This document shows positions 6,215-49,858 of a stretch of DNA of 64,000 nt, piece by piece. Position 1 is the first letter of the stretch; each line of letters opens with the position of its first letter. The position numbers and the translations under genes are program-made. The notes under the pieces were generated by a model, which was not told the DNA's origin, searched no databases, and worked only from the letters and a program-made list of their open reading frames with translations. This DNA comes from Amphiscolops sp. MND2022 (lineage: Eukaryota), in contig OZ076409.1 in assembly GCA_964187785.1 (NCBI GenBank), positions 17,858,001 through 17,922,000 of the forward strand, given 5' to 3'.

Positions 6215-6438
6215 CCATGCATGAAGACAATTTTATAAACTACTCTAGAGAGTTCATAGGAAGAACGAACCAAAATGTGTTATCAAATATGATGATACTA
6301 AAGCTGATTATACAAAATATTGATACGAGTTCATTGATTTTCTTAGGCTGAAAAAAGTCATTTAGTTTTGCTATTGATGCATTCTCTTAAATGCCGTTTC
6401 CAGATTTCTATAGTTGGGATATGCGTCGAAAAGCCAAC

Positions 6439-7220
6439 CTGGTGTTAGTCCTGTGTGGAAGTAAGTAGCTCCGTTCAAAAGACCAGAAGTGATGAGCGAG
6501 TCGTTTTCATCGAACAAAGAGATTGTTTCCACCTCCTCGGTGCTCGAAACTTCTACATTGATTTGAGTGGACGAATGGGAATATGCAGTGATGGTGGGAG
6601 CACTTGCCGAGGTATAAATATCCATGAACCCCTTCGGACCATCTAACGTTGCTGATGGATCAGCACAAGTGTATGTTGCATAAACTTCGATCGTGTAAAA
6701 GGAAGAAGCGTCCAGGTCGTTTTTAGTGAAAGAAGCCGTAGGAGTGTCTGAGTAAGAAGAAGTTCCCGTACCGACTTTGTATTTGTAACCTGTGACACCT
6801 CCTGACGGGGCATCCCATTGCACTGTGACGTCACCGGGAGCGTTGTTTGTGTATCGCAGGTTTCCTACTGGCCCCGGAAGAGTACAAACGTTAATGGGAG
6901 TTTTTGTGATTCTACATTTTTCGTCGGACTGTTGCGAGACTAAGTAAGAAACTTCATAAGTGTATGCGGTTCCATATTCAAGACTCGCATCATTGTCGAT
7001 GTATATTTGATTCTTCAGGTCGTTATTGATTGTAGTGGTGCCTCGTTTGACGGTGTAAGTGTTAGAAGCACTGTAAGCACTCAATTCCAGTTGAATCTCT
7101 TTGCCGCTCAACGCCGTGGCAGTTACAGTTATGTCTGAGGGTGAATTGAACAGAGTCAGTGACGCAACACTTGACGCATACACTTTGTCAACTGTCGCCC
7201 CAGTGCAGGTGAGGTATGGA
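6439..7220 (-). CDS. Host FN3-repeat protein exon (about 2.7 repeats)
   Basis: ttcag|..|gttggc, phase 2-1; LEYGTAYTYEV, VTVQWDAPSGGVTGYKY, LDASSFYTIEV, TGLTP. Confidence 0.88.
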
Positions 7221-7370
7221 CTGAAAAAATTTTTAATGTGTTAGTTTTTTAATGTCTTTAAAAAGCATCCAACTAAAGGTGGCATATGATCAGCACATTG
7301 AAATATGGTAGTATCATACGGAGCTATATGTTTTCATGTATCGAATTCTAGGAGACTCCATGATGCCTTG

Positions 7371-7638
7371 TGTACTGACCTACATTAATAACCAATAGTA
7401 TTTAGATGTTTATAGAATGTTCTAGAATGTACATTTATTTGTTATTGAATGATTGTAAATCTCTACTCCTTCAGAGAGAGAAAACTAATAATCAGTATTC
7501 AGTTGACTTCCCTTTTGTTCTACTCCTAACACCTCGGAATAGTTGTAATAAAGTAAGCTAGCTAGCCTGTCTCTCAGCCGCTTTTAGTAGTTGCGTATAA
7601 GACCATAAAAACAATAACCAACCATTAAAAGCAGCACA
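7371..7638 (+). repeat. 5' LTR of the giant gypsy element
   Basis: TGTACTGACC...GCAGCACA; matches 25560-25827 except one T/C; AATAAA at 7547-7552. Confidence 0.97.
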
Positions 7639-7641
7639 ATT

Positions 7642-7653
7642 TGGTGCGACTTG
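7642..7653 (+). promoter_or_regulatory. Putative primer-binding site (tRNA not identified)
   Basis: TGGTGCGACTTG 3 nt after the 5' LTR; TGG is complementary to tRNA CCA. Confidence 0.7.
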
Positions 7654-7881
7654 TAAAATTTTTCTTTTGTCTTTTCTCCTGGATGATTTCTCTTCTCTCA
7701 ACAATCATACAAATACCACTCTCCATATTTGAAATTCTCTGGAATTGCAGTGAAATCTTTCTAGAATTTCTTGAAAGTTTGGTCTGTGACTTTCTAAATT
7801 TCATTAACAAATACATCATCGTTCGAAACACAATTTCTCCACTACAACAATCAACTTTAATATAACAAAATTTCTTCAATA

Positions 7882-8211
7882 CTGGTTTATCACGTTTTCT
7901 AACACGTTGACACGGTTCTTTTTCCTGTTCTTCTAGCCATACCGGTTTATCACGTTTTCTAATACGTTGAAACGGTTTCATTTCAGACTGATTTATCCAT
8001 TGTGACACAGTTCTGTTTTTCTTCTTTTTCCAGACTGATTTATCCAAAGTGACACAGTTCTGTTCTCCATACTGATTTATCACAGCTAATCCGGAAGCTT
8101 GTTGAAACAGTTCTTTGATGTTTGTCTGGTTTATCAAGGTTTTCTAACACCTTTGACACAGCAACATTTGTCTGGTTTATCAAGGTTTTCTAACACCTTT
8201 GACACAGCAAC
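7882..8211 (+). repeat. Seven-unit degenerate repeat array in the element leader
   Basis: CYGRTTTATC...TGAMACRG units, with TTTATC at 7886, 7946, 7992, 8039, 8076, 8130 and 8176; the last two units are an exact 45-bp duplication. Confidence 0.85.
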
Positions 8212-8580
8212 TTTCTTCAATCCTGCTATCTTGAACGTCAGGTGGACTCCTGGTGTAATAGTTGACTGAGTGCATGTCCAACTCCGTTCACCTATAAGCA
8301 CATACGTCTCAAGATCAACTTCGTGTTGGCAGAAAACCTGGATTTTCTACTTTTACGTTTCGGATCCCCTTTCTACAAAATTTCCTATAAAAAAATTTCA
8401 GAAATAGACTCTGAAAACAAAAAAAGGCAACCAAGACTAACTACCAAAAACAACCACGCACTATTCCCTTTCTTTTCCTAAATTCACAAAACTTAAATAA
8501 TACACATAACTCCAAAAATGTTTTCACCAATCAACAAAAAGAACAAAAACAAATAAACTCAAACTTCCCTAAAGTACTTC

Positions 8581-8613
<33 letters not shown>
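8581..8613. repeat. (TAA)n microsatellite
   Basis: 11 TAA units. Confidence 0.95.
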
Positions 8614-8614
<1 letters not shown>

Positions 8615-9235
8615 TTTAACATAAACCTATAAAACCATTATTTTAACAAAATATAGCATACAATTTTCACAACTCTTTTGATTTAAAACTTAAAATAAGG
8701 CATGTAAATAAAACAAACAAAGCAAAGTTAATTTTCTACTTTCAGGAACCCACAATTCCTATCCCCTCCCGTAAGACTTAGCCAATCAGATAGCCTCACC
8801 AGCGTACTCTGATTCTAAGACTGACTAAAAACCTTAGTTAAGTGTAAACGTCTTTAAGGAGAATCGAGAGGACACCGAACTACGTTCGAATCTTCAAAAT
8901 TCTCAAGAAGTAAAAGTAAAAGTAAAAGAAACAAAGATCAAATTTTGATCTTGATCAGTATTGATAGAACTTTAGATAGTGGACGTTGATTGTTCAGAGT
9001 TCCACTCCTTTAGTCTTAAAACACACAACTCACTTAAAATTAAAACAATCTTAGTTTTTCTGGACGTGTCAGTAACCTTATGTTAGACACCTTAAAGTGA
9101 TCCAGACTTAAAATAACATTTAGTTTCTGTTAGCAATCCTTTGAGGTTGAATACAGATCCTACTGCACCCGCTTATTTCTTCTCTATCCCAAAATATTAA
9201 CTTCTCAAATAACTTCAAATTACAATACAACTTAT

Positions 9236-9400
9236 ATGAACCCAAACCAAGAAATTTATCCTTTCAACTTTTACATTCCACCAGTTAGCTCACTTCAAAA
9301 CCCTACACCAAACGATTTTGAAAGATTAATTGAACGATATCAACGATATTTCTTCTTTATCATAAATCAACAAAGAAATTACCCAAGAGCTCGAACTTAA
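9236..9400 (+). CDS. Small upstream ORF 1 (54 aa) of the giant element
   Basis: ATG..TAA, MNPNQEIYPFNFYIPPVSS...RART; A/C-rich like the element's main ORFs. Confidence 0.35.
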   Translation: MNPNQEIYPFNFYIPPVSSLQNPTPNDFERLIERYQRYFFFIINQQRNYPRART

Positions 9401-9448
9401 AAAATCTTTATACAAGACATTTCAACGTTATAACCTTCACATTATAAC

Positions 9449-9562
9449 ATGTGGGAAAAGGTTACCACAGTAGTACTCATTACAACATACACGTTTTGTG
9501 TCTTATTTATAGTTTGTGTTCTTCTTGAAAAAATCCTTACAGTGATAAGAGATAAACTTTAA
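9449..9562 (+). CDS. Small upstream ORF 2 (37 aa), single hydrophobic/TM segment
   Basis: MWEKVTTVVLITTYTFCVLFIVCVLLEKILTVIRDKL; stop lies 2 nt before the gag ATG. Confidence 0.45.
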   Translation: MWEKVTTVVLITTYTFCVLFIVCVLLEKILTVIRDKL

Positions 9563-9564
9563 AA

Positions 9565-12500
9565 ATGTCCTCAACGACAACCCCTCTACCTTTCCAAACT
9601 CCCGCCATTAAAAATGCAAAAGTTGTAAAATTAGAACTAAACCCATTTCTACAAAACATTCTTTCACATTATACACAACCACTCCCATTTGAAAATGAAC
9701 CACACACAATTGAAACAATCCCTCTTATCAGAGAACATTTGGACACATACCTTTTCTATATTAGATATAAAGTTTTAACAATCACCGAAGAATACCCAAC
9801 TTTTCAAATATCCTTTCCTCAACAAAAATTTAACTCATCTCATATATACAGAAGAACAATAAACCCAATAAACCTTCAAGTTCCTATTAAACAAGTCTTT
9901 CATGCTTTTCTATATAATGTAAAAGACCACAATTTAGCACACGAATTTCCAAAATATAGTCCAAATGCACTCGACGATCTTCAACGATACATAGACAATT
10001 TCGACGTAGAAATTATTGAAACATTGGTTAATCCTGAAGACAATCCTCATCATTGGTTACAAACTGATATATTACAAATTCAAAATTTCATCTACCACTA
10101 CTTCAAAGACCTAACATTAAATGACCAAACAATTCCTCAGATCAAAGTAATATCTTTATTTCTCAGAAAATATTTCAGATTTAATTATCAATTATTATGG
10201 TCTCAACAAGATCAACCTGCTTTTACAGAATTCCCAGATCAATTTACATCAGAAGAATGTTTACCATTCATCATCAGTGAACAAAATGAACACCCTTATT
10301 TTCATAAACCACAATTAATTACAAAACAAACCTTAGATTACATACGTTTCGATCCTCTATTAATTACAGAAAATGATCTATTCCCAGATAATAGACCTTA
10401 CCACTATCAACAAAATTCTCAAGATCAACAAAATTTACATTTTAACACTAACAATTCTACTGAAGATGATAACACCGATCAAGAAAATACAACCCAACAA
10501 CAAAATCAACCTGAAAACTATAACGATAATGAGTTTACTACCCAAGAATCTACAATCTCAACATATAATCCATCAAAAACAGGGACATCAACATCAGTAC
10601 ATACTCACTCCCTTAGAGTTCCAACTAGAGTTATAAATCAAGGACAAAATGTACATAGTCCTCAATCTCATTTAGATACATCTCCAAACCGTAATATAAC
10701 TTTTAACCTTCCACATACAGATGACATAAACGATGAAACCCATGATACATTACAATATACATCTAGTACTCAGAATACTTCTGCTAATGTTGCATCTCCA
10801 ACAAGAACTACCTCTGATTCTACAAGATACATAACTCGACCTAGATATGATCCTCCATCAATTCCCTCCGCCTTTCGCTCAAACCGATCAACCATTTCTA
10901 GTAACAATTTTAATGATAATCCTCAAACTTCTAACCGATATTACGATCCATTTAATTATAACTTTTATCCTCCATCAAACACAACTACCACTACAAATAT
11001 AAGCCAAAACCACTCTCAAATTAATACAATTTCAACAACACAAAATCCCTTCATACAATTATCAAATACCAATACGTCCCAAAATATAAATTCTCAAAAT
11101 CGAGGAACCTCGTGTAATTCCATTTCTTATTCTAATATTACACAGAATTCTCAAAGAAGACTTCATAATCCTCCACTCACACATATACCAACTGATCCTC
11201 TGTATCAAACGCATTCAAATCCAAATCCTAACCCTAATCCTAACCCATTACCATCAAATACAATCCAACATATACCTCCACCACTCACACAACAATTAGC
11301 TCCGCCACCCCAATATTTCCCAATGCCGCAAGATACCTTTATAAACATGTCCGCTTCAATACCAGAACCTATGAAACCTTTTGATGGTTTGGACCATTCT
11401 TACACCCCCGAAGAATATCTACAACAAGTCGAAGCGAGATTAACCTTCGCCATAGGTGAAGAACCTCAAAATAATCCTATAAAATACAAATCTTGGCATA
11501 ATAGACGCATGGCTTACATACAATGTTCATTAATAGGAACAGCTCTCGATTGGTACACTAACCTCCATATATCATATAAACAACAATGGAATTCCTTTGT
11601 ACAACTATTCAAAAAACAATTCTCATCTCAAAAAACTGCTTACTACGCTCAAGTAGAAGCTATGTCACTCATGAAAAAGGATAATGAAACAGTTCGCCAC
11701 TTTGCCCTTAGAGTACAACAATTAGTTAAAAAGGGATGGTGTAATGAAAATGCAGCTACCATAAATCTCAAAAATAACGAAATCTTTACAAAAGGGTTAC
11801 CAAAGAAATTAAAAGATTTTGCCCATAAACGACAAGTTAAACATGTATCAACATTACTTGAACCTTCAATACCATTTCATACACTTGTTAGACATGTCGA
11901 TTCAGAAGATATTGCTAATGAAAAAATCAGAACTAACGACTTAGCCTTAGAAATAAACAAAGTATCGCTTGAAGAAGATACTAACAAAAAAGAATTTGAA
12001 TACGAAGATCAGATAATGGTTACTCAAACTGGAGACCCAAATAACAAAAGCAAACCAGCGTATAGAAAATATTGTTCCTATTGTCATAAAAATAATCATA
12101 GTTTTTCAAATTGTTATCAAAAACAACGTGATGACGAATACCAGAAATACAATAACCAAAGATCACGAACTCCTCAACAATCCTTTGTACAATATTTCCG
12201 TAGTAAACCTAATAATCCTCAGGAAAATCGAAATGAAAATACTATCTCTTATTCCTCAGATAATGATCGTAATAAATACAATCAAAACTACTATAATGAT
12301 AGATACAGAAACAATGATAGATATCGTAGCAATAGTAGAGAATATTCGCAAAACAACTATAGATCAAACTCTCGACAAAGATATCATAATCGATCCCGAA
12401 GTCCGTATAGATCTCGATTTGATAATTATTATCAAAGAAGAACTCCATCTAGATCTCCATATAGATCTTCATACAGAAATAACTCAAATTACAGATATAA

Positions 12501-15500
12501 TTCTCGCTCAAGATACAGATCTCGTTCTCAATCACAAGGAAACTCCTTTAAACGATATAATTACCCATATAGATCTCCATCAAGACCTAGAGATTTTAGA
12601 TCAAGATCTAGAACACCCTCAAGAAACAGACAACAAAACAGAATAAATCAAGTAGACGTTAAAACACCAAAAGAAAATGATAGTACAAAATTTGAAATCC
12701 ACACCTGTCAAATGACTGAAATAGCTAATACAATCACCCCTTATAGTTGGTTTTATCCACTATATATTCACGCCTCTGAAACAAATGACAACATATTACC
12801 TTCAAAATTAGAAATCTTATTCCTTTTAGATACTGGAGCTTCCATATCTGTTTTGAATTTACCAACATTTCATGTAATTTCCAAACAATTAAACATCAAT
12901 GTTCCAACTAACCTCCAAAACAAAAGAGCCAAAACTCTTACAGTTGCAAACCAAACTGAAGTACCAATAATACATTATATTTCGATGACTTGTTTCACTG
13001 AAGTAAATCACAAAACACGATCCTTCAATATCGATTTTGCCGTAACAAATATCAAATACAACATTCTTGGAACACCCTTTTTCAAAAAGCACATCCAAAA
13101 TATTGATTTTCAACAAAACATTATGACATACACAGAACAATATCCAAAGCTTTCAACAAAAACTACATTTTCTACATTTACAGAAAAAGATTATCCATAT
13201 ATTTCTTACATTTATACTATTAAATGTAAGGAACCAATTCACTTTAAACCAAGGTCAGGAAAAACCATACATTTCCCAATTAAAAACTATTCAAATCTAC
13301 ATTTTGAACTCGAAGATAATACGAAGTTCTACCCAACAAACCCATATACATATTTCTTACAAAAATTTAAAAAAATCTTTCATTTCTTAGACATGATAGT
13401 CAATGAAAAAAGCAAAGACTCATGTGCAACTATAATTCAAAACTTTACATCTTACCCAGCTACATTACCACAAGGAATTATTGGATATATAGAAATACCG
13501 ATTACGCAAACAACTCCTCCTCACTACAGAGTTAACGATGCAAATTCACTCATTCACTCTGTAATACATGCATATCACCCTGATACGACAACCCCGATTA
13601 AACAAAATCCATATACAGATATGAACTTATGTACTAGGGTAATACCACAATCCCTATTAGAAATAAACAAGATAGAAATTAACGACAAAACACTTCAACT
13701 TCCTATACCTTCTGTTACTGGAAACCTTCGACCCTCAGATAAAATTCGAAAAGATTTCCCTCCATTACCCTATTCTACAGAAAACCAACAATTCATAAAG
13801 AAATTCAATTTCGAATACTCAGATTTAACCGATACAGAATATGTAAACCTTTGCAATATTCTAATTAACAACCAAAATTGTTACGCCAAACATAAAAACG
13901 ACGTAGGAAAGATTTCCACTCCTTTTCGAATTAGAATAAAAGATAATTGTAAACTTCACACACAAAGACCTTCTAAAGTACCTATCCACTATAGAGATAG
14001 ACTAAATAAACTTTTACTAGAACTCGAAAAATACAACATCATAAAACAAATTGGTTCAACAACAGATGAAAAACATACTATTGGAACAACATTTTTAAAC
14101 CCTTTAATTATTATTCCAAAAGGAGACGCAATAAAAGTTGTTTTAGACGCAAGACATCTAAACTCAAACACCAACCAAGAACTTGAATCTTGGCCTATTG
14201 AACCTTTAGCTCCTAAATTAGCTAGAGCAAATAAAAAATACAAATCAACTATTGATCTAATGTATGCATATGCTCATACACCATTAGATGAAGAAACAAT
14301 TAAACTTACAGGATTTTCATCCGGTGACAAATTATACGCCTTTATCCGTGGATTTTACGGATTAAAAGGACTTCCAAACTTTTTCACCAAACAAATGTCA
14401 ACTTTCTTTAGATCACTTATAGACAAACGTTCTGCGTTAGTTTATATAGATGATATTCTATTACTCGCAAATGAAAAACAAGAAATGTTTGAACTTATAA
14501 AAGAATTACATACAATAGCATCTCGAGAAAATCTCAAACTTGCACCTGAAAAATCGTTCTACATGTTACTCAAAGTAAAGTTCCTTGGACATGAAATTGG
14601 TAACAACACAATTAAGCCAATTCCATCCAAAATTGAAGCTATTAAAAGAATCCCATCACCAAAAGAAAAGAAAGATGTTATGCAATTTCTTGGCAGTGTT
14701 AACTTTTATTCAAAATTCATTGAAAAACTTCATATAAACCTTAAACCATTGTATACATTACTACATGATGATGTTAAATTTCAATGGACACCTGAATTAG
14801 AAAAACTATTTCAAAATGTTAAAAACGCAATGACAGCAGACACTGAATTAACAATACCCAACACCACGCATCCATTTTTTATAACAGTAGATGCTTCGTT
14901 AGTAGGTTTAGGCGCAGTCTTATTCCAAATGAACGAAGAAAATAAGATGAAAGTAATCTCGTATAACTCCAGAATTCTCAATACACAAGAACAAAAACTT
15001 TCAACTTTAGACAGAGAACTTCTTGCAATAGTTTACGCATTACAAATATATGAATTTTTGATCATTGGATCTCCTCATCCTATATATCTCTTCACAGATC
15101 ACAAGCCTTTATTACATTGTTTCGCAAAGAAAGGAAATCTTAGTCCTAGATTCTATAGAGCACAAATGCAATTAACCAAATTCTCCAAATTAAAAATCAT
15201 TCATACCCCTGGAAAAAAATTAACTGTAGCAGATATGCTTTCAAGAACCTTTACAAAAGAACAGCTACAAGTACACCAATTACGACACAAACAATTACCA
15301 CCTCAAATAGATTTCTCTATCATGAAAGATAATCAACTCAAACCAGTACATTATTTAGTAAAACATGAAGAAATAAAATATAATCAAAAAAATGATTGTC
15401 ATCCTATCCTTGCTGACTACGGAGACGACCAATTCTCCATCCGTATAAATAACAAAGGAGAAGATATACATATAAAGCCTTTAGATTCCTTCTCTTTTCA

Positions 15501-16095
15501 ATCTATTGTTCCATTCGAATCAAAATATAAAAGGCCTACAAAAAAACAAGCAAAATCTCTTTTACAACAATCGACAATTCTTAATGATACTGACATTCTT
15601 AGTGATGAAGATGAAATAACACCACCAAATAATATCCAACAACAAAACTCGAACATAGTAAAAGAATACACCCTTGCTATACAATATCCTACCAAATCTG
15701 ACTATTGTACACAACAAGTTCCATTTTTTGATCCGTCCTTTTTCAAATACAAAAAGTATTTTAATTACTTCTTCCTACCAGAAGATACACAAATAACCAT
15801 TGAAACAATAAAAACTCAACAAAATCAAGATACTGTTTTACAAAAGGTTTACCAGTGGATACTTAATAATGAAAAACCCTTACAAATAGACCCAACAATT
15901 GCAGCTAACTCTTTCTTATTAGTATATTACAAACTCTTCAACCAATTGTATATTAATCATGATACAAAAATTATTCACATAAATTATCCTATTTTCACGA
16001 TTCCAACCCGAATCAAAGAGACAAAATATGTTTACCATTTAAACTTTTCCACACAGCTTTTAACAAACTCCATGCTCATGGACATTCAGGAATAA
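9565..16095 (+). CDS. gag-pol: Gag-Pol polyprotein (long N-terminal extension, capsid, CCHC knuckle, RS-rich region, protease, RT, RNase H)
   Basis: KPFDG..PEEYL capsid start; CSYCHKNNHSFSNC; LLDTGASISVL; VYIDDILL; TVDASLVGLGAVL, RELLAI, TDHKPL, ADMLSR. Confidence 0.96.
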   Translation: MSSTTTPLPFQTPAIKNAKVVKLELNPFLQNILSHYTQPLPFENEPHTIETIPLIREHLDTYLFYIRYKVLTITEEYPTFQISFPQQKFNSSHIYRRTINPINLQVPIKQVFHAFLYNVKDHNLAHEFPKYSPNALDDLQRYIDNFDVEIIETLVNPEDNPHHWLQTDILQIQNFIYHYFKDLTLNDQTIPQIKVISLFLRKYFRFNYQLLWSQQDQPAFTEFPDQFTSEECLPFIISEQNEHPYFHKPQLITKQTLDYIRFDPLLITENDLFPDNRPYHYQQNSQDQQNLHFNTNNSTEDDNTDQENTTQQQNQPENYNDNEFTTQESTISTYNPSKTGTSTSVHTHSLRVPTRVINQGQNVHSPQSHLDTSPNRNITFNLPHTDDINDETHDTLQYTSSTQNTSANVASPTRTTSDSTRYITRPRYDPPSIPSAFRSNRSTISSNNFNDNPQTSNRYYDPFNYNFYPPSNTTTTTNISQNHSQINTISTTQNPFIQLSNTNTSQNINSQNRGTSCNSISYSNITQNSQRRLHNPPLTHIPTDPLYQTHSNPNPNPNPNPLPSNTIQHIPPPLTQQLAPPPQYFPMPQDTFINMSASIPEPMKPFDGLDHSYTPEEYLQQVEARLTFAIGEEPQNNPIKYKSWHNRRMAYIQCSLIGTALDWYTNLHISYKQQWNSFVQLFKKQFSSQKTAYYAQVEAMSLMKKDNETVRHFALRVQQLVKKGWCNENAATINLKNNEIFTKGLPKKLKDFAHKRQVKHVSTLLEPSIPFHTLVRHVDSEDIANEKIRTNDLALEINKVSLEEDTNKKEFEYEDQIMVTQTGDPNNKSKPAYRKYCSYCHKNNHSFSNCYQKQRDDEYQKYNNQRSRTPQQSFVQYFRSKPNNPQENRNENTISYSSDNDRNKYNQNYYNDRYRNNDRYRSNSREYSQNNYRSNSRQRYHNRSRSPYRSRFDNYYQRRTPSRSPYRSSYRNNSNYRYNSRSRYRSRSQSQGNSFKRYNYPYRSPSRPRDFRSRSRTPSRNRQQNRINQVDVKTPKENDSTKFEIHTCQMTEIANTITPYSWFYPLYIHASETNDNILPSKLEILFLLDTGASISVLNLPTFHVISKQLNINVPTNLQNKRAKTLTVANQTEVPIIHYISMTCFTEVNHKTRSFNIDFAVTNIKYNILGTPFFKKHIQNIDFQQNIMTYTEQYPKLSTKTTFSTFTEKDYPYISYIYTIKCKEPIHFKPRSGKTIHFPIKNYSNLHFELEDNTKFYPTNPYTYFLQKFKKIFHFLDMIVNEKSKDSCATIIQNFTSYPATLPQGIIGYIEIPITQTTPPHYRVNDANSLIHSVIHAYHPDTTTPIKQNPYTDMNLCTRVIPQSLLEINKIEINDKTLQLPIPSVTGNLRPSDKIRKDFPPLPYSTENQQFIKKFNFEYSDLTDTEYVNLCNILINNQNCYAKHKNDVGKISTPFRIRIKDNCKLHTQRPSKVPIHYRDRLNKLLLELEKYNIIKQIGSTTDEKHTIGTTFLNPLIIIPKGDAIKVVLDARHLNSNTNQELESWPIEPLAPKLARANKKYKSTIDLMYAYAHTPLDEETIKLTGFSSGDKLYAFIRGFYGLKGLPNFFTKQMSTFFRSLIDKRSALVYIDDILLLANEKQEMFELIKELHTIASRENLKLAPEKSFYMLLKVKFLGHEIGNNTIKPIPSKIEAIKRIPSPKEKKDVMQFLGSVNFYSKFIEKLHINLKPLYTLLHDDVKFQWTPELEKLFQNVKNAMTADTELTIPNTTHPFFITVDASLVGLGAVLFQMNEENKMKVISYNSRILNTQEQKLSTLDRELLAIVYALQIYEFLIIGSPHPIYLFTDHKPLLHCFAKKGNLSPRFYRAQMQLTKFSKLKIIHTPGKKLTVADMLSRTFTKEQLQVHQLRHKQLPPQIDFSIMKDNQLKPVHYLVKHEEIKYNQKNDCHPILADYGDDQFSIRINNKGEDIHIKPLDSFSFQSIVPFESKYKRPTKKQAKSLLQQSTILNDTDILSDEDEITPPNNIQQQNSNIVKEYTLAIQYPTKSDYCTQQVPFFDPSFFKYKKYFNYFFLPEDTQITIETIKTQQNQDTVLQKVYQWILNNEKPLQIDPTIAANSFLLVYYKLFNQLYINHDTKIIHINYPIFTIPTRIKETKYVYHLNFSTQLLTNSMLMDIQE

Positions 16096-17588
16096 AAATA
16101 TCCATCAAAGCTTTCAACCAATTTTACTTCATACCGTACCTGAATAACTGGATGTCAATATTCATCCATGATTGCATTGAATGTCAACAAAATAAACATA
16201 TTAACCAAAAATTACAAACTGCATCTATACAAACCTTCTCAGAAAATGCTTCATATTTTAATTACAGAATATCAATGGATACAAAAGGACCTATAAACCC
16301 ACCATCAAATCAAAATTCATACATTCACGTTATAGTAGACGCTTTTAGTCACTTTGTAGTAACAGTACCCATAAAACAAAATAATGCTCAAAACGCTGTT
16401 AACTCATTACTACATCATTGGATAACAAAATTTGGACCTCCTGTATACCTAGTTACCGACCGTGGAACAGAATATATTAATTCAAAATTTGCAAATCTTT
16501 GTACTACAATGGGAATTAGACACTCACCAAGAACTCCTTATGCACCATGGACAAATGGTTTAGTTGAAAACCAAAACAGAAATCTTGGAACTCATCTTAG
16601 ACTTTTCTTACATAACACTCCAGAAAATTGGTCAACTCAAGTCCATATGTATGCTTATGCACATAATTCACAACCACTTTCTGAATTAAACTTATCTCCA
16701 TATGAAATAGTATTTCATACTATACCCAGAATTCCAATCAACTTTGAACTCAATCTCCAAAGAGATACATATAGAAATTGTACTTCTCAATATTGTCAAG
16801 AGCTACCACTTCATACACACTATGACAAATCAAATCTAAACCCTTTCTTTCGTAAAATTTTATCTAAACCAATTCCACAATGGATCTTAGCTATTGAAAC
16901 TGCTATGATACAGATATACCATACGGTATATGAAAACACAAAAAGAAAGATTAATTCCTATGCTTATTTTAACAAAACATATCACAATCCAAAACCCTTA
17001 GATATTGGTACATTTGTACTAAAAAGAAATTTTCTCCATGTTCATTTTTCCGATAAATTAAAACCTCTCAGAATTGGCCCATTCAAAATTATTAACAAAC
17101 TCTCCGATATAACATATGAAATTGTTAATCAAGATGGTTATACATCGCACATACATAGAAATCATTTAATTCCTTATTATCCAAAAGAACCAGTTATTTT
17201 CCCTTTCATACAACAATATAACCCTCATTTATTTAATGACTGTCATTCAAATACAAATGATCAAATAATTAACTCTGATGAAGACAAATTTACAGACGAA
17301 GAACAATTTCCTTCCACAACATTTAATAAAGAAACGGATATACCATCCACGAATGACTTACAATCAGAACCATTTAACCAATATTCTTCATTTCCATATA
17401 AACAAAAAGAACAAATTCCTCAAAATACCTCCCTGGATAACCAATCAGATATTCATGATTATGATAATTTTATTAATCCCCGAAGACACTTCTATAATAG
17501 ATACAATTTCCGCCCACAACCAAGAAAAGACTACCGACTCTTCCTTGTTGAAAAGGATATAATCTCACTTTCTCAAAAATCCTGCTGA
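15963..17588 (+). CDS. pol: Integrase (continuation of pol in the -1 frame)
   Basis: Frame open from 15963: KICLP..KLHAHGHSG..CIEC (HHCC), SMDTKGP, VTDRGTEY, NGLVENQN (DDE), IGPFKI (GPF/Y); ORF track starts it at ATG 16152. Confidence 0.95.
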   Translation, partial: YKNYSHKLSYFHDSNPNQRDKICLPFKLFHTAFNKLHAHGHSGIKISIKAFNQFYFIPYLNNWMSIFIHDCIECQQNKHINQKLQTASIQTFSENASYFNYRISMDTKGPINPPSNQNSYIHVIVDAFSHFVVTVPIKQNNAQNAVNSLLHHWITKFGPPVYLVTDRGTEYINSKFANLCTTMGIRHSPRTPYAPWTNGLVENQNRNLGTHLRLFLHNTPENWSTQVHMYAYAHNSQPLSELNLSPYEIVFHTIPRIPINFELNLQRDTYRNCTSQYCQELPLHTHYDKSNLNPFFRKILSKPIPQWILAIETAMIQIYHTVYENTKRKINSYAYFNKTYHNPKPLDIGTFVLKRNFLHVHFSDKLKPLRIGPFKIINKLSDITYEIVNQDGYTSHIHRNHLIPYYPKEPVIFPFIQQYNPHLFNDCHSNTNDQIINSDEDKFTDEEQFPSTTFNKETDIPSTNDLQSEPFNQYSSFPYKQKEQIPQNTSLDNQSDIHDYDNFINPRRHFYNRYNFRPQPRKDYRLFLVEKDIISLSQKSC

Positions 17589-17757
17589 AATACGGAATAC
17601 AGAAAGAAATACACACAAAGAAAGTTTGAAAGAAAGAAAAAGTTTGAAGCTTAAAACGAAAATAAATGAAATTTATCTCACGAATGAGAATAAAAGAAAG
17701 AAATCCTAATTGATATAAAACTATAACTATTTTACAAGCTGAAACTAACTATCATAA

Positions 17758-19227
17758 CACAACGATTTCAAAATTGATAGACATATTCACTCACCATCAT
17801 CAACTACAAATAACTCTTCTTCTAGTTCAACACATTCACTCCAAAGATTACCTGAATATACAGCATATTTAAACTCAGATACAGACATACTGGATTCCTC
17901 ATCCTCAAATCCCAGTCCATCCGCTCCATATACTCCTGATAGAGTACCAACAACACCCACTAATACACCTATATCCCAAACTCAACCACAAATATTAACA
18001 ACTCAATCACAACTTATTTCACGAAATCTAACATTTTTAGAAACAAATTCACCACTTTCTGACTCTAATGATGAAACACCTACAATACCAAATACACAAG
18101 ATACTTCAGATATTTTGAATAGACCTCCTCTTCCACCGATTACTACTACTCGTTCTATTCATATTCCTGATCCTAGCTCAGTACTACAATACATAAATTC
18201 TTGTCCACACAAAGTACCAACTGCAACGAAAACAAAAAGAAAAACTCCTTTACCTACATTACCACAAAATCTTGATTTACCATCATCAAGTAATATCCCA
18301 ATAACATTTTTACCAGAACCTTCATTAAAATCACCAACGAAAAAATCACAACAATACCCAACTCCTTCACCATCGGAACTAAGTTCCTTCACATTTTCTC
18401 AAATATATCCCAAGCTTGAATTACAACGTGTACATTCAACAACTACCTCTTCATTAACAGACTTATATCATAAAGATAAATACTCTGACTCAACTGCTAG
18501 TACTAGAGTACCAAGACATAATTATAACCTTCGATCTCAACAACAAAGAAATTCTCAAGAATTACAATCCTTGACTAGCTCAAGTACAAACTCAAGACTA
18601 CTTCGACAACACGCCCAACCCAGATTGGACACTTCTTCTCTTTCCTCATCTCAGCCCACTATACCATCTTCTCTATCACTACCATTTCAAATCACATCAG
18701 GATTTGAAACAGCCTCTCTTCTTTCTGAAGAGCCAGCAACTATATCAGATAGCGCAGCTAATTTTTCACGAGTTTACTCACCTAGTTCAATAGCCTCAAA
18801 CTCCTCTATACAATTACCTGAATATTTTTTAGAAGACTTCTCAAGACCTCCATCGCCAAATCCTCACGAATATCCTATTCGTGTTAACTCAAAAATTGTT
18901 CGCACGCTTAACGAAGATCCTCGATACACGGTTTTACCTGCAAGATTTATAAACAATAGTTCACTCTCAACTCAAAGAAAACAAAGAGAACTACGAAGAT
19001 TACAAGAACAACAACTCACATTAAAATTTGAAGTAGAAGTCACATTCAACTCGTTAGGACCTCATCCATTCTCTCTTTCAACAAGAGTAGCACATAAAAC
19101 AACCCCATCACCATTCATTGTTACCTCCATTTCCTACCTTTGTGACGCCGATTTACCTGAGATTAGAACAGGACATATAAACTTTTTTAATCCCTACTCA
19201 GGACTCAATTATAGATCAATATTTTAA
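17758..19227 (+). CDS. Accessory ORF between pol and env; 489 open codons, S/P/T-rich, no Met
   Basis: Frame of the 18115-19227 track ORF stays open back to TAA 17755-17757; stop lies 2 nt before the env ATG. Confidence 0.75.
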   Translation, partial: HNDFKIDRHIHSPSSTTNNSSSSSTHSLQRLPEYTAYLNSDTDILDSSSSNPSPSAPYTPDRVPTTPTNTPISQTQPQILTTQSQLISRNLTFLETNSPLSDSNDETPTIPNTQDTSDILNRPPLPPITTTRSIHIPDPSSVLQYINSCPHKVPTATKTKRKTPLPTLPQNLDLPSSSNIPITFLPEPSLKSPTKKSQQYPTPSPSELSSFTFSQIYPKLELQRVHSTTTSSLTDLYHKDKYSDSTASTRVPRHNYNLRSQQQRNSQELQSLTSSSTNSRLLRQHAQPRLDTSSLSSSQPTIPSSLSLPFQITSGFETASLLSEEPATISDSAANFSRVYSPSSIASNSSIQLPEYFLEDFSRPPSPNPHEYPIRVNSKIVRTLNEDPRYTVLPARFINNSSLSTQRKQRELRRLQEQQLTLKFEVEVTFNSLGPHPFSLSTRVAHKTTPSPFIVTSISYLCDADLPEIRTGHINFFNPYSGLNYRSIF

Positions 19228-19229
19228 CC

Positions 19230-21806
19230 ATGAACCAAATCACCTTTACCTTTCATTTAATATATATAATACAAGTTGTTAAATACACGTATATAATAAA
19301 TATAGTTCACTCTTTAGTTCACCCTTCAACTGTTCCCAAAGTTGACACCACCAATTCCGAAAATCATATTTCAGACCAAGATCCTAACATTTTACACTTA
19401 ATGGTATCTCATTATGATTGTGCAAAACAAAACAACCTAAGACAATTCGGTTTATTAAACGTAGAACCATGTAAACAAGCACCCTCAGATATACAACACA
19501 CACAAACCCAAGCAACAATTTACGTTAGAGCAAAAGCCAAAAGAATAAAAGCCTTTAAATGTGAAGCATATATAAAGACTGAGAAAGTCTGGTGTTCACA
19601 AACATTCACATCTAGTAGACGATATGATCGTTTACAATGGGGACAAAACACATTAGAACTTCCAAAAATATTGGACCCTATTGAATGCAAAAATATGATC
19701 AGATATTTAAACGCGACTGATAACGAAGAATTAAACAATTACAATATACAAAACTCTTTCTCATTGTTCGATGATAGTAATTATCAAAACACAATTGAAC
19801 GAATTCAGACACCATTTAGAGTAAAAAAATTAAATACATGGCATATTGGAACCTTCGTATTTGACGAAAATTATCCTGATTGGATAGTTAATGTTACACA
19901 AAATACATACTCTAGATGTCGATCAGACCGCGAACATTTAATTACCCGACAAAGTTGGAAACTTAGAATTGTTAACACCGCAATAGATTATGACGATAAA
20001 AACAATCAATTAATACATGACGGACACATATTACCATGTTATCATTCAGACGGATTTTGTAAACCAACGACCAAAACTCTATATACATTAACATGGTTTG
20101 ATGAAAAATTTTCCCTCATATTTCAACTTCAAGAATTCATTGGTAGAATGACACGAATCAAAGATAGATACTGGATAGAAACCGATACCTTTATTGAAAC
20201 TTCAAACATCACACAAAAACTTCAAACCGAAGGAATACAAGGAACAAAATACCCTAATATAAAAACACCACAATCAAAAGTAAGCAATCCAAGCCTTTCT
20301 CGATTTGAAATATACCCAATTGCACAAACTTTCTGTGGAAAACCTGAACCATTATTTTCAACACAATATGATGACACCTTTGTTACATACTTAGATGGTT
20401 TTGATATGAACACAGGATTACCAAAACCACACTCAATAATTGACCAAACAATTAGTGGAAATATAAAATATGATGATTCAAACAAAAGGTATATATTCCC
20501 TGCATTGAATATATCAAACAATTTCGCCACTTTAGACTATGATGCCCACATTAATACAAAAATTGATTTCACAATAAATCATGTATTTAAATCCATGACA
20601 GTACAAGAATTAAACACTCTACATACAATATGTGAACTAGAAAGAACTCAACTGTTAACAATACTAGCAATGTCAGTTAAAAATCCCCAATTAGCCGGTT
20701 TTCTTTTAACTGGAAATCGTAGTAACTTTCTCTACGTTGAAGGATCTACAGCATGGCTGTATGATTGCCCTCATTTTATATCACCACTATACAAGGCAGA
20801 TAAATGCTTTGATAGAATTCCTATACACTACAGAGAAACGATAATGTATGTTGACCCAATAACAAGACAAACTTTTAACTACGCAACACCAATTGAATGT
20901 GGAAACAACCCACAAAATATAATAGAATTAGATCCAGATTCCAACGACGGAGATTTTTATGTGTTAACACCAGAACCACTCAAACGAGAAGCACCACAAA
21001 TGTTTAAACCTACCCAAATTAAAACAACAATCACTCCTAATACATTAACCGCCCAAGATGCCGGTATATACTCAAATGCAGAATTAGATCAATTCTGGAA
21101 TAGAGTATTATTTGCTAAACATTCAGACACAACTCTTCAATTACTTCGAAAATCATTAAGCTATGATTTCATTTCAATGCATAACGAAAAACACTCATAC
21201 TCAGAACATAATCCCTATAATCATTTAAGGATTGGAGTACATGACCACTTGTTAAATCTTCTACCACTTTTTAACCCTGACTGGTTCAGTCAAGCATTCA
21301 TTAATTTCTTTGGATACCCATGTTATGTTTTAACCCAATGTGGAATTTATTTTTCAACATTCCTTTTCATTAGAGAAGTTTTAACATTTTTACTCAAATT
21401 CTACAGAACAATTAGCATAAAATATAATCTCCAAAGCAATATTTCCATTTTGAGTTCAATAGCCCATGGATTTTTTAATATAGTTACGTCGGAAATGGTA
21501 ACCGATTTAAATAATACAGGAAAACGAAAACGGATATATACTAAACACAAAATTACAACAAGTGAAAATGATAATATCCTATTGCCGGAAAAAGAATTAA
21601 ACAATAAACGAAGACACTCTGATACTGACTCCCCTTATTTACCTCCTAAATATTCCAGTAAGAATTCAACATTTCAATCACCGCAAAAGACACACCCAAC
21701 TAATGTAAATGATATTAATTCTCAGGACTATGACCCAATAATGTCAAATGTAATAGCTGTACCGGAAAGTCCTGCTAAAGTCTTTATAAAATTCAATCCC
21801 TCCTAG
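19230..21806 (+). CDS. env: Envelope glycoprotein, class III fusion (herpes gB / chuvirus G-like), 858 aa
   Basis: Hydrophobic N-terminus, HYDC motif, Cys-rich ectodomain with N-glycosylation sequons, CELERTQL..NP..CFDRIPI..YVDPITR..IEC block, GIYSNAEL, C-terminal TM and cytoplasmic tail. Confidence 0.85.
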   Translation: MNQITFTFHLIYIIQVVKYTYIINIVHSLVHPSTVPKVDTTNSENHISDQDPNILHLMVSHYDCAKQNNLRQFGLLNVEPCKQAPSDIQHTQTQATIYVRAKAKRIKAFKCEAYIKTEKVWCSQTFTSSRRYDRLQWGQNTLELPKILDPIECKNMIRYLNATDNEELNNYNIQNSFSLFDDSNYQNTIERIQTPFRVKKLNTWHIGTFVFDENYPDWIVNVTQNTYSRCRSDREHLITRQSWKLRIVNTAIDYDDKNNQLIHDGHILPCYHSDGFCKPTTKTLYTLTWFDEKFSLIFQLQEFIGRMTRIKDRYWIETDTFIETSNITQKLQTEGIQGTKYPNIKTPQSKVSNPSLSRFEIYPIAQTFCGKPEPLFSTQYDDTFVTYLDGFDMNTGLPKPHSIIDQTISGNIKYDDSNKRYIFPALNISNNFATLDYDAHINTKIDFTINHVFKSMTVQELNTLHTICELERTQLLTILAMSVKNPQLAGFLLTGNRSNFLYVEGSTAWLYDCPHFISPLYKADKCFDRIPIHYRETIMYVDPITRQTFNYATPIECGNNPQNIIELDPDSNDGDFYVLTPEPLKREAPQMFKPTQIKTTITPNTLTAQDAGIYSNAELDQFWNRVLFAKHSDTTLQLLRKSLSYDFISMHNEKHSYSEHNPYNHLRIGVHDHLLNLLPLFNPDWFSQAFINFFGYPCYVLTQCGIYFSTFLFIREVLTFLLKFYRTISIKYNLQSNISILSSIAHGFFNIVTSEMVTDLNNTGKRKRIYTKHKITTSENDNILLPEKELNNKRRHSDTDSPYLPPKYSSKNSTFQSPQKTHPTNVNDINSQDYDPIMSNVIAVPESPAKVFIKFNPS

Positions 21807-22227
21807 CTGAAAAGCAATAACGTAAAAAACAAATTAACCTCAAGAAAAGTTCACAAAATTATCAACCAAATTCTTCTCAGTTTCAACTTTCATTCACATC
21901 CAAATTCTCACTCGGACCGGTCTCTCCTTTTCAACTCAACTCAACTCAACTCTCAACCAGAAGACATCAACTGGATTTTCAGTCCATCTAAACGACCGAA
22001 ATCACAGAAGTTTCTATTCCTGGAAGAGATGCCACTGTGATTGTTGATGTGTTCAACCCATCATTGACCCAGTATTCCCATATTGTAAGTACAATTTAAA
22101 CTTTAATTTTAACAAACAATTTAATGGATAGAAAAGACATAACAAAATTTTTCCTTAGTATTAGAAAAAATGTAATCAAATGTTATAATTATTATTTTAG
22201 CTCTACAAAAACACGCAAGTTTAAATA

Positions 22228-23519
22228 ATGGAATCCTTGCCCGAAATTGATGTAGTTAACTCTAATCCCTCTGAATTGCTTGCAACCCCTTTGAATATAA
22301 CTATTCAACAAATAGTTAACGAAGATAATAACTCTTCCTCCAACTCTCAAGATCCTATAGAAAATATCCCTATTGAACAAGTAGATCATGTCAACACAAG
22401 ATCTCAAAAAAAAAGTACCCAGATATAACCGCAGATAAACCTTTTATGGAATCTGGCGCTTGCCCTCCTTTCATAAAACCAATTAAACAAGATGAAGATA
22501 GAGATTGTGAATTAGTTCCTATTCTCTCGTCGAAACAATTCACATTTCAATCTCAGTTAACTTCGTTATACATGATCCCAACAAAATACAAATTCATCAT
22601 CAGAGAATTTAAAAATGATTATCATACATCAATTGCTTCAAAACTGATTACCCCATATGATTGGTGGTTAAACAATAAAGTGAAAATTTTCTCACTTCAA
22701 TACAACTTTCTCAGACCATCTCCATATGATCTCCGAACAGAAGAAAATGATGCAAATTTTTTGCCATATCAAATCAAAAAGGCCCACCATATGACTTATC
22801 AAAAGTTCCTTCAATATAAAGAGCCCGATAATTATATATTCTTCAACTCCAAATATACATCGCCATTCACCTTCAACTCAGAATATTTAATAGATCATAC
22901 CAAAACAAAAGGAAAACTTAGAAATTATGACCCGCTGAAACAAAGTTTTCTCTTCCTTCCAAATGATAACCCAAAAAGACCAATCATTGTTCCACAAGAA
23001 TACCTCATTCTAAACGACGATTCGTTACTACAAGAAGATATACCTCAACATATATCTGATCCTCTTCCTCCACTTCAACAAATAGCCTCTCAACCATTGG
23101 GAGACTGTGAAAAATCTTATTTTCACGCAATGATCAAAAAGGGATATTCAAATAATGAATTAATTTTCATTATTTCCCACTTGCTTTCACTTCTTACAAA
23201 TGGAAATCACAAAGAATATAAAAGGGCAAAACAAGAATCGCCTAAGAAAACCAAAAATGATATTCCTCAACCACAAAGCTTTCGCCCAACAGATGAATTA
23301 CAGAAATATACAGAAATTCTGAATATCATAAAACCGTATCATCATCCAAACCGAGATATTCTTATAACAATCGCTGAAATCGTAAATACCCTTGAACAAG
23401 CTCGAAGCATAATAAAAAATATCTTATTTGATACGACAAGAATTAGCCAATCAGCTTTGTGCATTCGCACATCCTTAGACGAATTCAACTACACTATTGA
23501 AAAAATGCATCGATCTTAA
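22228..23519 (+). CDS. Accessory ORF downstream of env (~430 aa if joined across the A9 run at 22406-22414), unknown function
   Basis: 66-aa ORF 22228-22428 overlaps the -1 frame leading into the 357-aa ORF 22446-23519; preceded by a candidate intron 22085-22200. Confidence 0.7.
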
Positions 23520-23925
23520 CTGGTAATTATGGGAAAATAGCTTTAAAGTTATTAACACTTATCACTTAATCTCTTAACAACCTGTCAAAAATAATTGAAT
23601 CTACACGCATATGCCTGCTATGCATGATTTTAATACTTACTTGATGTTAAAATACACTTTTAAAATGAAATAACATAAAAATTTCAATCACGACATAAAA
23701 ATTTTCAACGAAATTCTTCAATTGCTCCTCCTTTCAATGGACCGATTTCAATAAATAAGTACTTATATGAAAGATATTTAAATACCCTTCAAAAGACTTC
23801 CAAAATACAACAACTTAATACTTAAAATTAAAAAGTTATAACATCACAAAATTCAATAAAAAAATGTCAACTACGAAATTCTATTTTCAAAGGAACTTTA
23901 TTGTAAACAAACTAATCTATTTTAG

Positions 23926-24516
23926 GTGAATATCGTCACAACTGCTTCTTCAGCATTCCTTCCTTCTCTCAGGTCACCCATTCAAGAAGAATTCCGAAGT
24001 ATCCTCTACAGCTTTCAACGAAATTTTCTCATTCTTCAATATGACAACTATCCACTCTGGCGACATTGACTGCCCGATAGCTCCTTTCCTTTCAATCTCT
24101 TCAGCTCGATTGCGATCCTTGATCCTGAAAAAGCATTTAACGACATTAAATGCGCAGCTTCGAACAGAAAAAAGGCTGACCCACATCTTACAAGGATGAT
24201 ATTGCTTAATATGTTCCAAATATTCCAAATAACAAGAATAAATTTCGACCAAAATCTCCATATTCATAAACATCCTGACACTTATTCAACTCAAAAGGAT
24301 GCCACTACCCAAACGGAACATACTACAATCAAATCCAAACGTTTACTACGAACCCTATCCAATAGAATGCGTTCCGAAATGGAAAAACAACGTCTAAATT
24401 CATATTGGCCCTCAGATGACAATGATGACACTGACGAAGACCTTCAAAAAGATCCCCCAGAAGCACTTTTAGACGATAACTATCCACACAAAACATATAC
24501 TTACGTTTCCTTCTAA
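23926..24516 (+). CDS. Second downstream accessory ORF, probably spliced; one in-frame TGA at 24067
   Basis: Frame of track ORF 24196-24516 extends to an ACTAAT..TTTTAG acceptor at 23925 with a single stop. Confidence 0.5.
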
Positions 24517-25544
24517 CATCAACAGACGCCACCAACAGCACCCGTCAACTCTCATCTTGGAATTCCACATCTTCAACGAGCAACAGATCAGCACCCATCT
24601 TCAATTTCATCGCCGCCCAACAGTTGCCCACCTTCATTCATCTGCTGACCCTTCTTCTTCCATCTTCCCATCGTCCATCATCACCCACATGCTCAGCCGA
24701 AGATGATCGATAATTACTAATAAAGAAAACTCAAAGAAAAAACATTGTGCATGATAACATTTCGAAAAGTTTCAAACTCATCTAATATTTAAAGAATTCA
24801 AACTTTTACCGAAATTATTCATTATGTAGTTATTATTTCAAATTTCATCCCCACCCATATTTATTTGCCCAAAAATCTTTTATTCACACCCGTACCGATA
24901 TTTATTTGCTTTATTTTTAAAGAATAATTAGTAATAATTATTATTTTTTGGTGCTATCCTATCCAAAAAATTCACAAATATTATCAACAAATCTTTTCAA
25001 ATTTCAACAAAACCAACTCAAAATCAGATCAAGCACATTGTTCAGATCAAATTTGAAAAATGACAGACCCAAATTCTCAAAGTTTTCAACATTTGTTACA
25101 TAACAAACCCGCCAAAGTTAATCACAACCTGAAATCTTTTCAAACGTATTTCACGTTCAAAAATTTTTTTTTCTTCTCAACAATATTATTTCTTTGACTC
25201 TTTGACCTATAACTCGTATGATGTTTACTCACGTTTGTTCAATGCGAAGTTCATTCAAAACTTCAACAGAAGCATAAAATTGAGCATCTACCAGTTCAAA
25301 AAACAAGCCGACGAAAGCATAGTGAAAAAGAACACTTTGATGCTTTTTGAACTGTAGTCGCACCTACGAGGTGTCAATCAAAATTTTGACAATTCGAGGT
25401 ACACCAATGAGTCGAACTACACCACTCTTAACGAGACTTATGCCAATCATACATCAAATGAAAAATGTTAACTAGCTGAAACGCTAAGAACATTTAAACA
25501 AAAAAATTTTTTTCATTTCATGATGCTACTTTAAATTTTTATTT

Positions 25545-25559
25545 AAAAACCGGGATGGA
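25545..25559 (+). promoter_or_regulatory. Polypurine tract
   Basis: AAAAACCGGGATGGA directly abutting the 3' LTR. Confidence 0.65.
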
Positions 25560-25827
25560 TGTACTGACCTACATTAATAACCAATAGTATTTAGATGTTT
25601 ATAGAATGTTCTAGAATGTACATTTATTTGTTATTGAATGATTGTAAATCTCTACTCCTTCAGAGAGAGAAAACTAATAACCAGTATTCAGTTGACTTCC
25701 CTTTTGTTCTACTCCTAACACCTCGGAATAGTTGTAATAAAGTAAGCTAGCTAGCCTGTCTCTCAGCCGCTTTTAGTAGTTGCGTATAAGACCATAAAAA
25801 CAATAACCAACCATTAAAAGCAGCACA
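25560..25827 (+). repeat. 3' LTR of the giant gypsy element
   Basis: Direct repeat of 7371-7638, preceded by a purine-rich tract and followed by TSD CTTG. Confidence 0.97.
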
Positions 25828-28141: not shown

Positions 28142-28503
28142 TCAGGAATTTCCATGCAGAAACTATGGTAAAAACAAATCTGACATCCTTAAAAGATGAT
28201 CAGAACCTCAAAATTCGAATTCCACATAGAGTTGATTTTCTCAAACTAAAAAAATGGAAACGACAAAATGAAATATTGCATTGAAATTTGACAATTGAAC
28301 TTTTTTTGGCTCATCCGAATATTTCTGTATTAGAGAATAATGTTGGTTTAGTTCGAACTATACCAATACTATTCTCCGAATACAAAAATATTCGGATGAG
28401 CCAAAAAATGTTCAATTGTCAAATTTCAATGCATTATTTTATTTGTTTTAATTTTTTACATTTGAACGAACTGTCATCTTTTAAGTACGAGGAGATTTCC
28501 TGA
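28142..28503. mobile_element. MITE-like inverted-repeat element
   Basis: Inner arms ~28267-28324 and ~28387-28443 are near-perfect inverted repeats; outer TCAGGAA/TTCCTGA. Confidence 0.6.
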
Positions 28504-49221: not shown

Positions 49222-49785
49222 TATAAGGCTAGGACGTGGCTGAGCAGTGAAGACTTTCGTTTAGAAAGACAATTAGAAAAAGTAGTTAATTTGAAGATTA
49301 GTTTGGAAGGCTATTTCAGTTGATGAGCGCTGTGAAAAATTGTGGAAAGCACCGGGTATTTATACTCCAAAAGGTAAACATGCCATTTGTTAACGGTTGG
49401 GGACTTTGGAAGAATGCGGATGTGAATTTCCTTGATTTTTACAATCGGACATTCTCGAAGGAATTTTCCATCACACCGTCATGAAAAAATGTAATACTTC
49501 AATGCAAAAATCATGAACTTCAAAATCGCTTCATAATCCAATTTTGAGGTCATAGATGGGAGTCAGATGTTTGATATTTACGATACTTTCGACAGGTTGA
49601 ACTTGAAAGGTTAAACATCAACAAATAATTCGAGTCAGCTAGCACCATCATTTAATTCATTGCTCGAACAACTTGAAGCTTGCTAACATATCAGGTTAGT
49701 TTGTTTCTTCTCGATTTTGAGCTATTAATAAATAAAGTATAAGTTTTGTAGCTCAAGAAATTTGACTATGTTCTTTTCCTCAACA
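49222..49785 (-). repeat. 3' LTR of the copia element
   Basis: 564 bp, TG...TA on the minus strand; about a dozen differences from the other LTR. Confidence 0.93.
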
Positions 49786-49858
49786 CCCCCACTCAGATTG
49801 TTCCGGATGTCGTAGGAAGAATCTGCATTCAACCCAAAAGTTGCTTTCGATGTTGCTC

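Follow-up and report, generated by a model that had tools for sequence, protein, structure and literature searches.

We found that the envelope (env) gene lies inside a complete 18.5-kb Ty3/gypsy provirus at positions 7371-25827 of the window, by which we mean the whole 64,000-nucleotide stretch of Amphiscolops sp. MND2022 DNA that was analyzed. With moderate confidence, we read this provirus as a recent, now decaying copy whose active relatives likely make enveloped particles with ORF-A, a protein that would start at a CUG codon and would likely be translated from the env mRNA. The features of the provirus are listed in Table 1.

Table 1. Features of the Ty3/gypsy provirus, in window coordinates
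Feature	Position	Strand	Description
5' LTR	7371..7638	+	268 nt, TG...CA; preceded by a 4-nt target-site duplication; 1 mismatch vs 3' LTR
Primer-binding site	7642..7653	+	begins TGG
gag-pol	9565..17588	+	Gag, protease-like DTG motif, RT, RNase H, integrase; usually a single frame
Candidate splice acceptor (putative)	17796..17825	+	pyrimidine tract and YAG, 3' of the last ATG before ORF-A; read by eye
ORF-A	17890..19227	+	445 aa from the conserved CUG; no Met
env	ATG 19230..21806	+	858 aa; gB/chuvirus-type class III fusogen (predicted fold); PPxY in cytoplasmic tail
ORF-B	22228..23519	+	~430-aa accessory protein; broken near 22.4 kb in the window copy
ORF-C	24070..24516	+	3' part, still open, of an accessory ORF of ~170-310 aa whose 5' part is disrupted in the window copy
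3' LTR	25560..25827	+	followed by the 4-nt target-site duplication

Structure, copies and surroundings of the provirus

The element has the RT-RNase H-integrase order of Ty3/gypsy together with a retrotransposon gag, TG...CA LTRs, a target-site duplication and a primer-binding site (PBS). The Pfam matches within gag-pol were Retrotrans_gag, RVT_1, RT_RNaseH and then rve with H2C2; the domain set of the element is gypsy-like, and families of BEL/Pao or copia were absent from it. In 3 of 10 subfamily copies, gag-pol was uninterrupted, with a frame 2640-2734 aa long. In the host assembly (1.07 Gb), the exact 28-mer across the LTR-PBS junction occurred 823 times, with 0 occurrences of the control, and the PBS 12-mer occurred 1085 times versus 57 for its control. 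Each of the ten copies picked by their env was 93-99% identical and extended over most of the element. The element is thus present in hundreds of dispersed, closely similar copies; the HSV/gB-type errantiviruses are likewise multicopy. Searches with env gave 8,060-12,553 first-look candidates, figures that should not be taken as copy numbers. We examined six subfamilies in three lineages, with env sequences ~51-94% identical to that of the window, and the order gag-pol, ORF-A, env, ORF-B, ORF-C was found in all five subfamilies that were fetched whole.

Three env matches of one subfamily at G000:C9:7861239-7900349 of the host assembly had an exact spacing of 18,204 nt, which corresponds to a head-to-tail array of whole elements. 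The 5' leader of the window copy (7879-8212) contains degenerate tandem repeats of 46-60 nt, possibly enhancer or packaging signals, and short tandem repeats were also seen in the leaders of other lineages. A 209-aa frame at 12017-12646, open in most sister copies, overlaps the Arg/Ser/Tyr-rich end of gag and may be a by-product of composition; comparable overlapping frames are present in other lineages.

The gypsy element stands antisense in an apparent transposon-filled intron of a fibronectin-III gene, ~150 nt from an acceptor-like site, and the fibronectin-III exons of this probable host gene lie on the minus strand at 6371-7240 and 57921-58412. A copia-type element on the minus strand (49222-53369), with direct repeats 3.66 kb apart and pieces of gag, protease and integrase, looks internally deleted. 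Two integrase-only fragments were seen at 36426-37722 (+) and 39840-42431 (-), the latter between ~98% identical direct repeats 2.19 kb apart and possibly a small non-autonomous LTR element. The segment 42645-46006 is a tandem duplication with a period of ~1.67 kb and hairpin-like inverted repeats (243-nt arms, 50-nt loop), and related arms occur near 28266-28444 and 57495.

Env has the predicted fold of a class III fusogen

The env frame is open, without a stop, from 19215 to 21806 (+). This agrees with the uninterrupted 858-aa ORF given in a preliminary description of the same DNA, and every motif of the series noted there was located: HYDC at aa 61, CELERTQLL at aa 468, CxxRIPI at aa 526, YVDPxTR at aa 540, IEC at aa 555 and GIYSxxEL at aa 612. 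A hydrophobic N-terminus, a transmembrane (TM) segment and a tail were also noted there. By hydropathy alone, the TM region is clear (segment from ~aa 700-706, peak 1.59; a long helix in the structural model). The hydrophobicity of the N-terminus is just moderate (19-aa Kyte-Doolittle maximum, 1.45), and the signal peptide is weak in the window copy. Hydrophobic N-termini and conserved cysteines were present among the env relatives in the alignment. The protein contains 15 Cys and 8 N-glycosylation sequons, and a search of its 858 aa for an R-x-K/R-R furin site found none.

The Pfam family PF24664 (Monjiviricetes_fusion) matched env with E=1.2e-24 (86.7 bits; cut-off, 27). A monomeric AlphaFold2 model of residues 34-757, built from an alignment of 105 sequences, had a mean pLDDT of 76.6 and a pTM of 0.53. 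When this model was compared with the PDB by Foldseek, 112 matches were obtained at E<=0.001 (best E 3.7e-12), and the best 33 of the 112 were all herpesvirus gB, at ~10% identity and with whole-chain TM-scores of 0.19-0.27. Whole-chain superposition on gB was poor (TM 0.2-0.3, rmsd 11-17 A); VIA-align against gB gave Z 9.4, with domain IV superposing at an rmsd of 3.5 A over 157 residues, and rhabdovirus G scored lower (Z 6.9-7.7). In BFVD, a collection of predicted viral structures, the top-scoring entries, with E values from 1e-29 to 1e-26, were glycoproteins of chu-, qin- and xinmo-like viruses. By sequence, a search of the PDB with the env profile gave 0 matches at E<=1. No F-type or class I protein was among the fold-search matches listed for env, and the protein does not resemble an F-type (class I) env in that it has no furin site and its model is a beta-rich, gB-like fold. 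As a prediction, a gB-like class III fold is close to certain. The preliminary description had assigned env to the class III gB/chuvirus type and away from the F type, and had proposed this structural comparison as a check; the assignment withstood it, with herpesvirus gB as the listed PDB matches and a predicted fold that is not class I.

ORF-A carries the signature of a CUG start and leaky scanning

ORF-A consists of an S/T/P-rich N-terminal part with PSAP, YPxL and YNLR motifs and a conserved C-terminal domain of ~140 aa, and it is 34-45% identical between lineages. The C-terminal domain had no Pfam match below E 0.2 and no PDB sequence match. Because its model was unreliable (pLDDT 47), no matrix-like fold of ORF-A is supported. 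A weak search among 144 candidates found no longer or fused form of the protein.

Met was absent from ORF-A in six of six subfamilies. Near its start lies a CTG in the ORF-A frame, flanked by A at -3 and by GA at +4/+5; it was present in 11 of 11 copies of five subfamilies and in 3 of 3 copies of the sixth, although CTG makes up just 1-2 of the 41-58 Leu codons of the ORF. The codon was retained in 28 of the 29 sister copies covered. From this CUG to the env ATG, a distance of 1.17-1.35 kb, the six subfamilies had 0-3 ATGs in any frame. Eleven copies had 0-2 ATGs there versus 6.4-8.5 in dinucleotide shuffles (P<=0.01 each), and pol and env had 12-23 ATGs per kb. Six other low-complexity or G-poor stretches and a gag stretch had 7-22 ATGs per kb versus 1.5 in this region. 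The nine residual ATGs were never in a strong context and opened uORFs of 1-17 aa. The env AUG itself is in a moderate context in all six subfamilies.

The avoidance of ATG in ORF-A is synonymous. Of the 28 Asn, Asp, His and Tyr codons that precede a G in ORF-A, 6 ended in T. For env the count was 166 of 201 (with one copy per lineage, Fisher p=2.6e-5 and 0.004); the share ending in T was 65% before other bases, and it was 76-83% in pol and env.

Two elements of leaky scanning, a near-cognate start codon in a strong context and few AUGs before the downstream ORF, are thus present. The CUG in a Kozak context and the near-absence of ATGs before env suggest a bicistronic mRNA read by leaky scanning, and judged on these sequence features a CUG start with leaky scanning is probable. 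We also considered that ORF-A might start by splicing to an upstream exon with an AUG, with env on a separate spliced mRNA and the shortage of ATGs a by-product of an S/T/P-rich, G-poor composition. In retroviruses and in Drosophila gypsy, env is as a rule expressed from its own spliced mRNA. In addition, the frame is open above the CUG, five subfamilies have acceptor-like sites (read by eye) upstream of ORF-A, 3' of the last upstream ATG and 5' of the CTG, and the first 330 aa of ORF-A are ~45% S/T/P. A scan of the leaders of three subfamilies gave no candidate splice donor common to them. However, a rare Leu codon has been kept in a Kozak context across proteins just 34-45% identical, and the ATG shortage extends over the whole 1.3 kb. 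Composition does not account for this shortage, as judged from dinucleotide shuffles, from synonymous codon choice and from control stretches that are just as poor in G. We regard this alternative as unlikely.

Late-domain motifs on the cytoplasmic side of env

In retroviral Gag, P(T/S)AP serves as the Tsg101 motif and YPxL as the ALIX motif (PMC12789967). We collected 34 distant env sequences and dropped two with tails <40 aa, leaving 32. In these tests, which were devised after the motifs had been noticed in alignments and whose P values are optimistic, P(T/S)AP occurred in 11 of the 32 tails (shuffle mean 0.20, maximum 3) and in 0 of 32 ectodomains, and hydrophobic-YP-x(1-3)-hydrophobic occurred in 12 of 32 tails (shuffle 1.25) and in 3 of 32 ectodomains. 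PPxY was not enriched (3 of 32 versus 1.1), and permuted motifs were found in 0-3 of the 32 tails; short motifs such as these can mislead. After clustering at 45% identity, P(T/S)AP was present in 9 of 26 clusters, either motif in 14 and neither in 12.

In the 18.5-kb family, whose six subfamilies represent just three independent lineages, the motifs are distributed differently. ORF-A has YPxL in 6 of 6 subfamilies and PSAP in 4 of 6, at 9-10 residues past the CUG; PSAP is absent in one lineage (2 of 6 subfamilies). The env tails have PPxY in 6 of 6 subfamilies and no P(T/S)AP or YP-type motif. YPxL and PPxY also occur within gag-pol, as expected by chance in long proteins. Furthermore, ORF-A has YNLR in 6 of 6 subfamilies, and Y-x-L/F-R is found at the pol end in 5 of 5. 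These match the core of the chromatin-binding site of foamy virus Gag, GGYNLRPR (PMC12125541, PMC6042332). In retroviruses and foamy virus, the late-domain and YNLR motifs are in Gag, whereas here they are in a separate ORF and in env tails, and the likeness is one of short motifs alone.

On this motif pattern, budding through ESCRT is an evenly poised possibility. Cell-to-cell infection, also read from the sequences, falls slightly short of that. Alternatively, selection on the gB-like protein and the accessory ORFs might reflect a role inside cells or at cell contacts (cell-cell fusion, vesicle traffic or silencing suppression) and not the formation of free enveloped particles. Selection on the ORFs, described below, shows merely that they aid replication, and ORF-B and ORF-C have no family match. 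According to Chary and Hayashi (eLife 2026; PMC13524379), the mode of transmission is not known outside Drosophila, and gB of HSV requires partner glycoproteins. Against such a role, it is the cytoplasmic side of this env family in particular that is enriched in late-domain motifs, as would fit outward budding. We consider the intracellular or cell-contact role quite improbable.

Selection between lineages and decay of the window copy

As the preliminary description had recognized, gag-pol of the window copy is frameshifted, near 16.0-16.1 kb. The break is private, as 27 of the 29 sister copies read through it: 18 of 19 in the unbiased set and 9 of 10 among those picked by their env. On the same count, we reject a programmed frameshift in pol. 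For the unbiased sample, 20 copies were taken from the junction list in order along contig C1 regardless of the state of env, skipping the window copy and one copy already in the set; env was open over at least 850 aa in 3 of the 20, and gag-pol over >2600 aa in 0 of the 20. Break rates were calculated from the 10 of these 20 copies that were closest (>=92% identity), 9 of which covered env. The rates were 0.69 breaks per kb in env, 0.78 in gag-pol, 0.47 in integrase, 0.99 in ORF-A and 0.98 in ORF-B, and the chance of an unbroken 2.6-kb env was P ~0.57. The private env changes of the window copy were 10 non-synonymous and 2 synonymous, the neutral ratio. Because its LTRs differ at just 1 of 268 sites, the window copy is young; because of the private pol break, the private 10:2 env changes and the P of ~0.57 for an unbroken env, it is decaying neutrally.

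Shared variants, which originate in replicating lineages, gave an env pN/pS of 0.03. Pairwise dN/dS between subfamilies, with some dS values near or >1 and thus close to saturation, was 0.066-0.101 for env, 0.08-0.10 for gag-pol, 0.09-0.16 for ORF-A, 0.06-0.10 for ORF-B and 0.08-0.25 for ORF-C. These values point very strongly to purifying selection at the lineage level, between replicating subfamilies. The preliminary description had argued that env is under selection since it is intact while pol is frameshifted. That argument fails, as the pol break is private, env and pol break at equal rates and the private changes are neutral; selection on env stands between subfamilies (dN/dS 0.07-0.10, like pol) but not for the window copy. 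That the window env itself is preserved, as an active or domesticated gene, while pol decays is highly improbable: its frame is open and at least 850 aa of env were open in so few unbiased copies, but the copy is young, its chance of being unbroken was more than half, and we reject selection on it from the break rates (0.69 vs 0.78 per kb) and the private changes.

ORF-B, ORF-C and related elements

ORF-B is 33-45% identical between lineages, and ORF-C is barely alignable between them (15-22%). Pfam gave no family for ORF-A, ORF-B or ORF-C, and there was no usable Atlas match for ORF-B. ORF-B had 297 database relatives, and the 120 of the 297 that were listed were all at least 69% identical. 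A distant 13-kb gypsy element on a metagenome contig (L091) has two ORFs after a gB-type env and no equivalent of ORF-A; by hhalign, ORF-B was not homologous to these two ORFs or to ORF-A. The two post-env ORFs of that element (L091:9651-12095) are paralogous, 28% identical, with coiled-coil ends predicted by eye. A second very large gB-env family (P0069), with 4,561 member sequences ~30% identical, has PTAP in its tail, and it comes from another genome because the host assembly has no close match. Among 20 pattern matches in viral contigs, 0 were relatives.

Comparison with known systems

A gB-type env in Ty3/gypsy elements is already known. In their main text, Chary and Hayashi (PMC13524379) describe it across metazoans, in 'ancient errantiviruses', and tie it to the chuvirus-like glycoprotein of BEL/Pao elements. 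The window element shares with these HSV/gB-type errantiviruses the gag-pol-env order, LTRs, PBS, multicopy state and a gB-like env, which in their elements has a signal peptide and TM and does not always have a furin site. It is unlike them in that a 1.6-kb gap between pol and env holds ORF-A and that two more ORFs lie 3' of env, and it measures 18.5 kb versus ~8-13 kb for LTR-bounded ctenophore and tunicate errantiviruses (24 of 1512 table rows; the others may contain the family described here or elements of similar length). For non-insect elements, their general filter allowed a pol-env distance of 1000 nt and a total length of 10 kb, with wider manual windows for some phyla.

The glycoprotein of chuviruses (Jingchuvirales) has been captured by BEL/Pao elements and also occurs beside gypsy fragments (PMC7642597, PMC10084718), and chuvirus G is reported to match gB (bioRxiv 10.64898/2026.08.30.748148). 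Env shares PF24664 with this type of glycoprotein and has chu-like virus G as its best structural neighbours. However, it is just 11-16% identical to viral G, and its carrier is a complete gypsy element, not a BEL/Pao element or an EVE fragment. The ATG-poor stretch of ORF-A is the pattern described for leaky scanning in rice tungro bacilliform virus (PMC5902531); there, and for the dicistronic env mRNAs of SIV/HIV, the evidence is experimental, whereas here we infer the mechanism, and the likeness is one of mechanism between different virus families.

The main text of Chary and Hayashi (PMC13524379) makes no mention of accessory genes, splicing, leaky scanning, ESCRT, late domains or budding. 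Among the titles and opening lines of abstracts searched, outside subscription journals and Repbase, we found no report of CUG initiation or leaky scanning, ESCRT or late domains, or additional ORFs in errantiviruses. The complex gene set, the CUG/leaky-scanning signature and the late-domain pattern thus appear to be new.

Proposed mechanism and significance

We propose that, in active relatives of the window copy, a subgenomic and probably spliced mRNA would start just upstream of ORF-A. Part of the ribosomes would initiate at the CUG, and the rest would scan ~1.3 kb to the env AUG, which would couple the two proteins. ORF-A may act as a matrix- or tegument-like adaptor that recruits Tsg101 through PSAP and ALIX through YPxL, and the PPxY of the env tail may assist it, so that capsids would bud with env. 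Env would then fuse the particle with a neighbouring, probably germ-line, cell, and the YNLR-type motifs of ORF-A and of the integrase end may tether the complex to nucleosomes.

The family permits a clean contrast between selection on replicating lineages and neutral decay of inserted copies, and it contains a gene, ORF-A, that ATG-based annotation misses. Tentatively, it may be viewed as a 'complex' errantivirus, a giant gypsy family overrunning its host genome, with accessory proteins, a leaky-scanned, CUG-started matrix-like protein and a class III fusogen, and with budding by ESCRT; more widely, the tails of gB-type env would carry late domains, and env, not Gag, would drive budding. The CUG/leaky-scanning signature points to a way in which the accessory and envelope proteins of such an element could be coupled. 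The exit and entry of gB-type errantiviruses are stated as unknown in the catalogue of Chary and Hayashi (PMC13524379), and late-domain motifs on the cytoplasmic side of env, together with an accessory protein that may be co-translated with it, suggest a specific and testable exit route.
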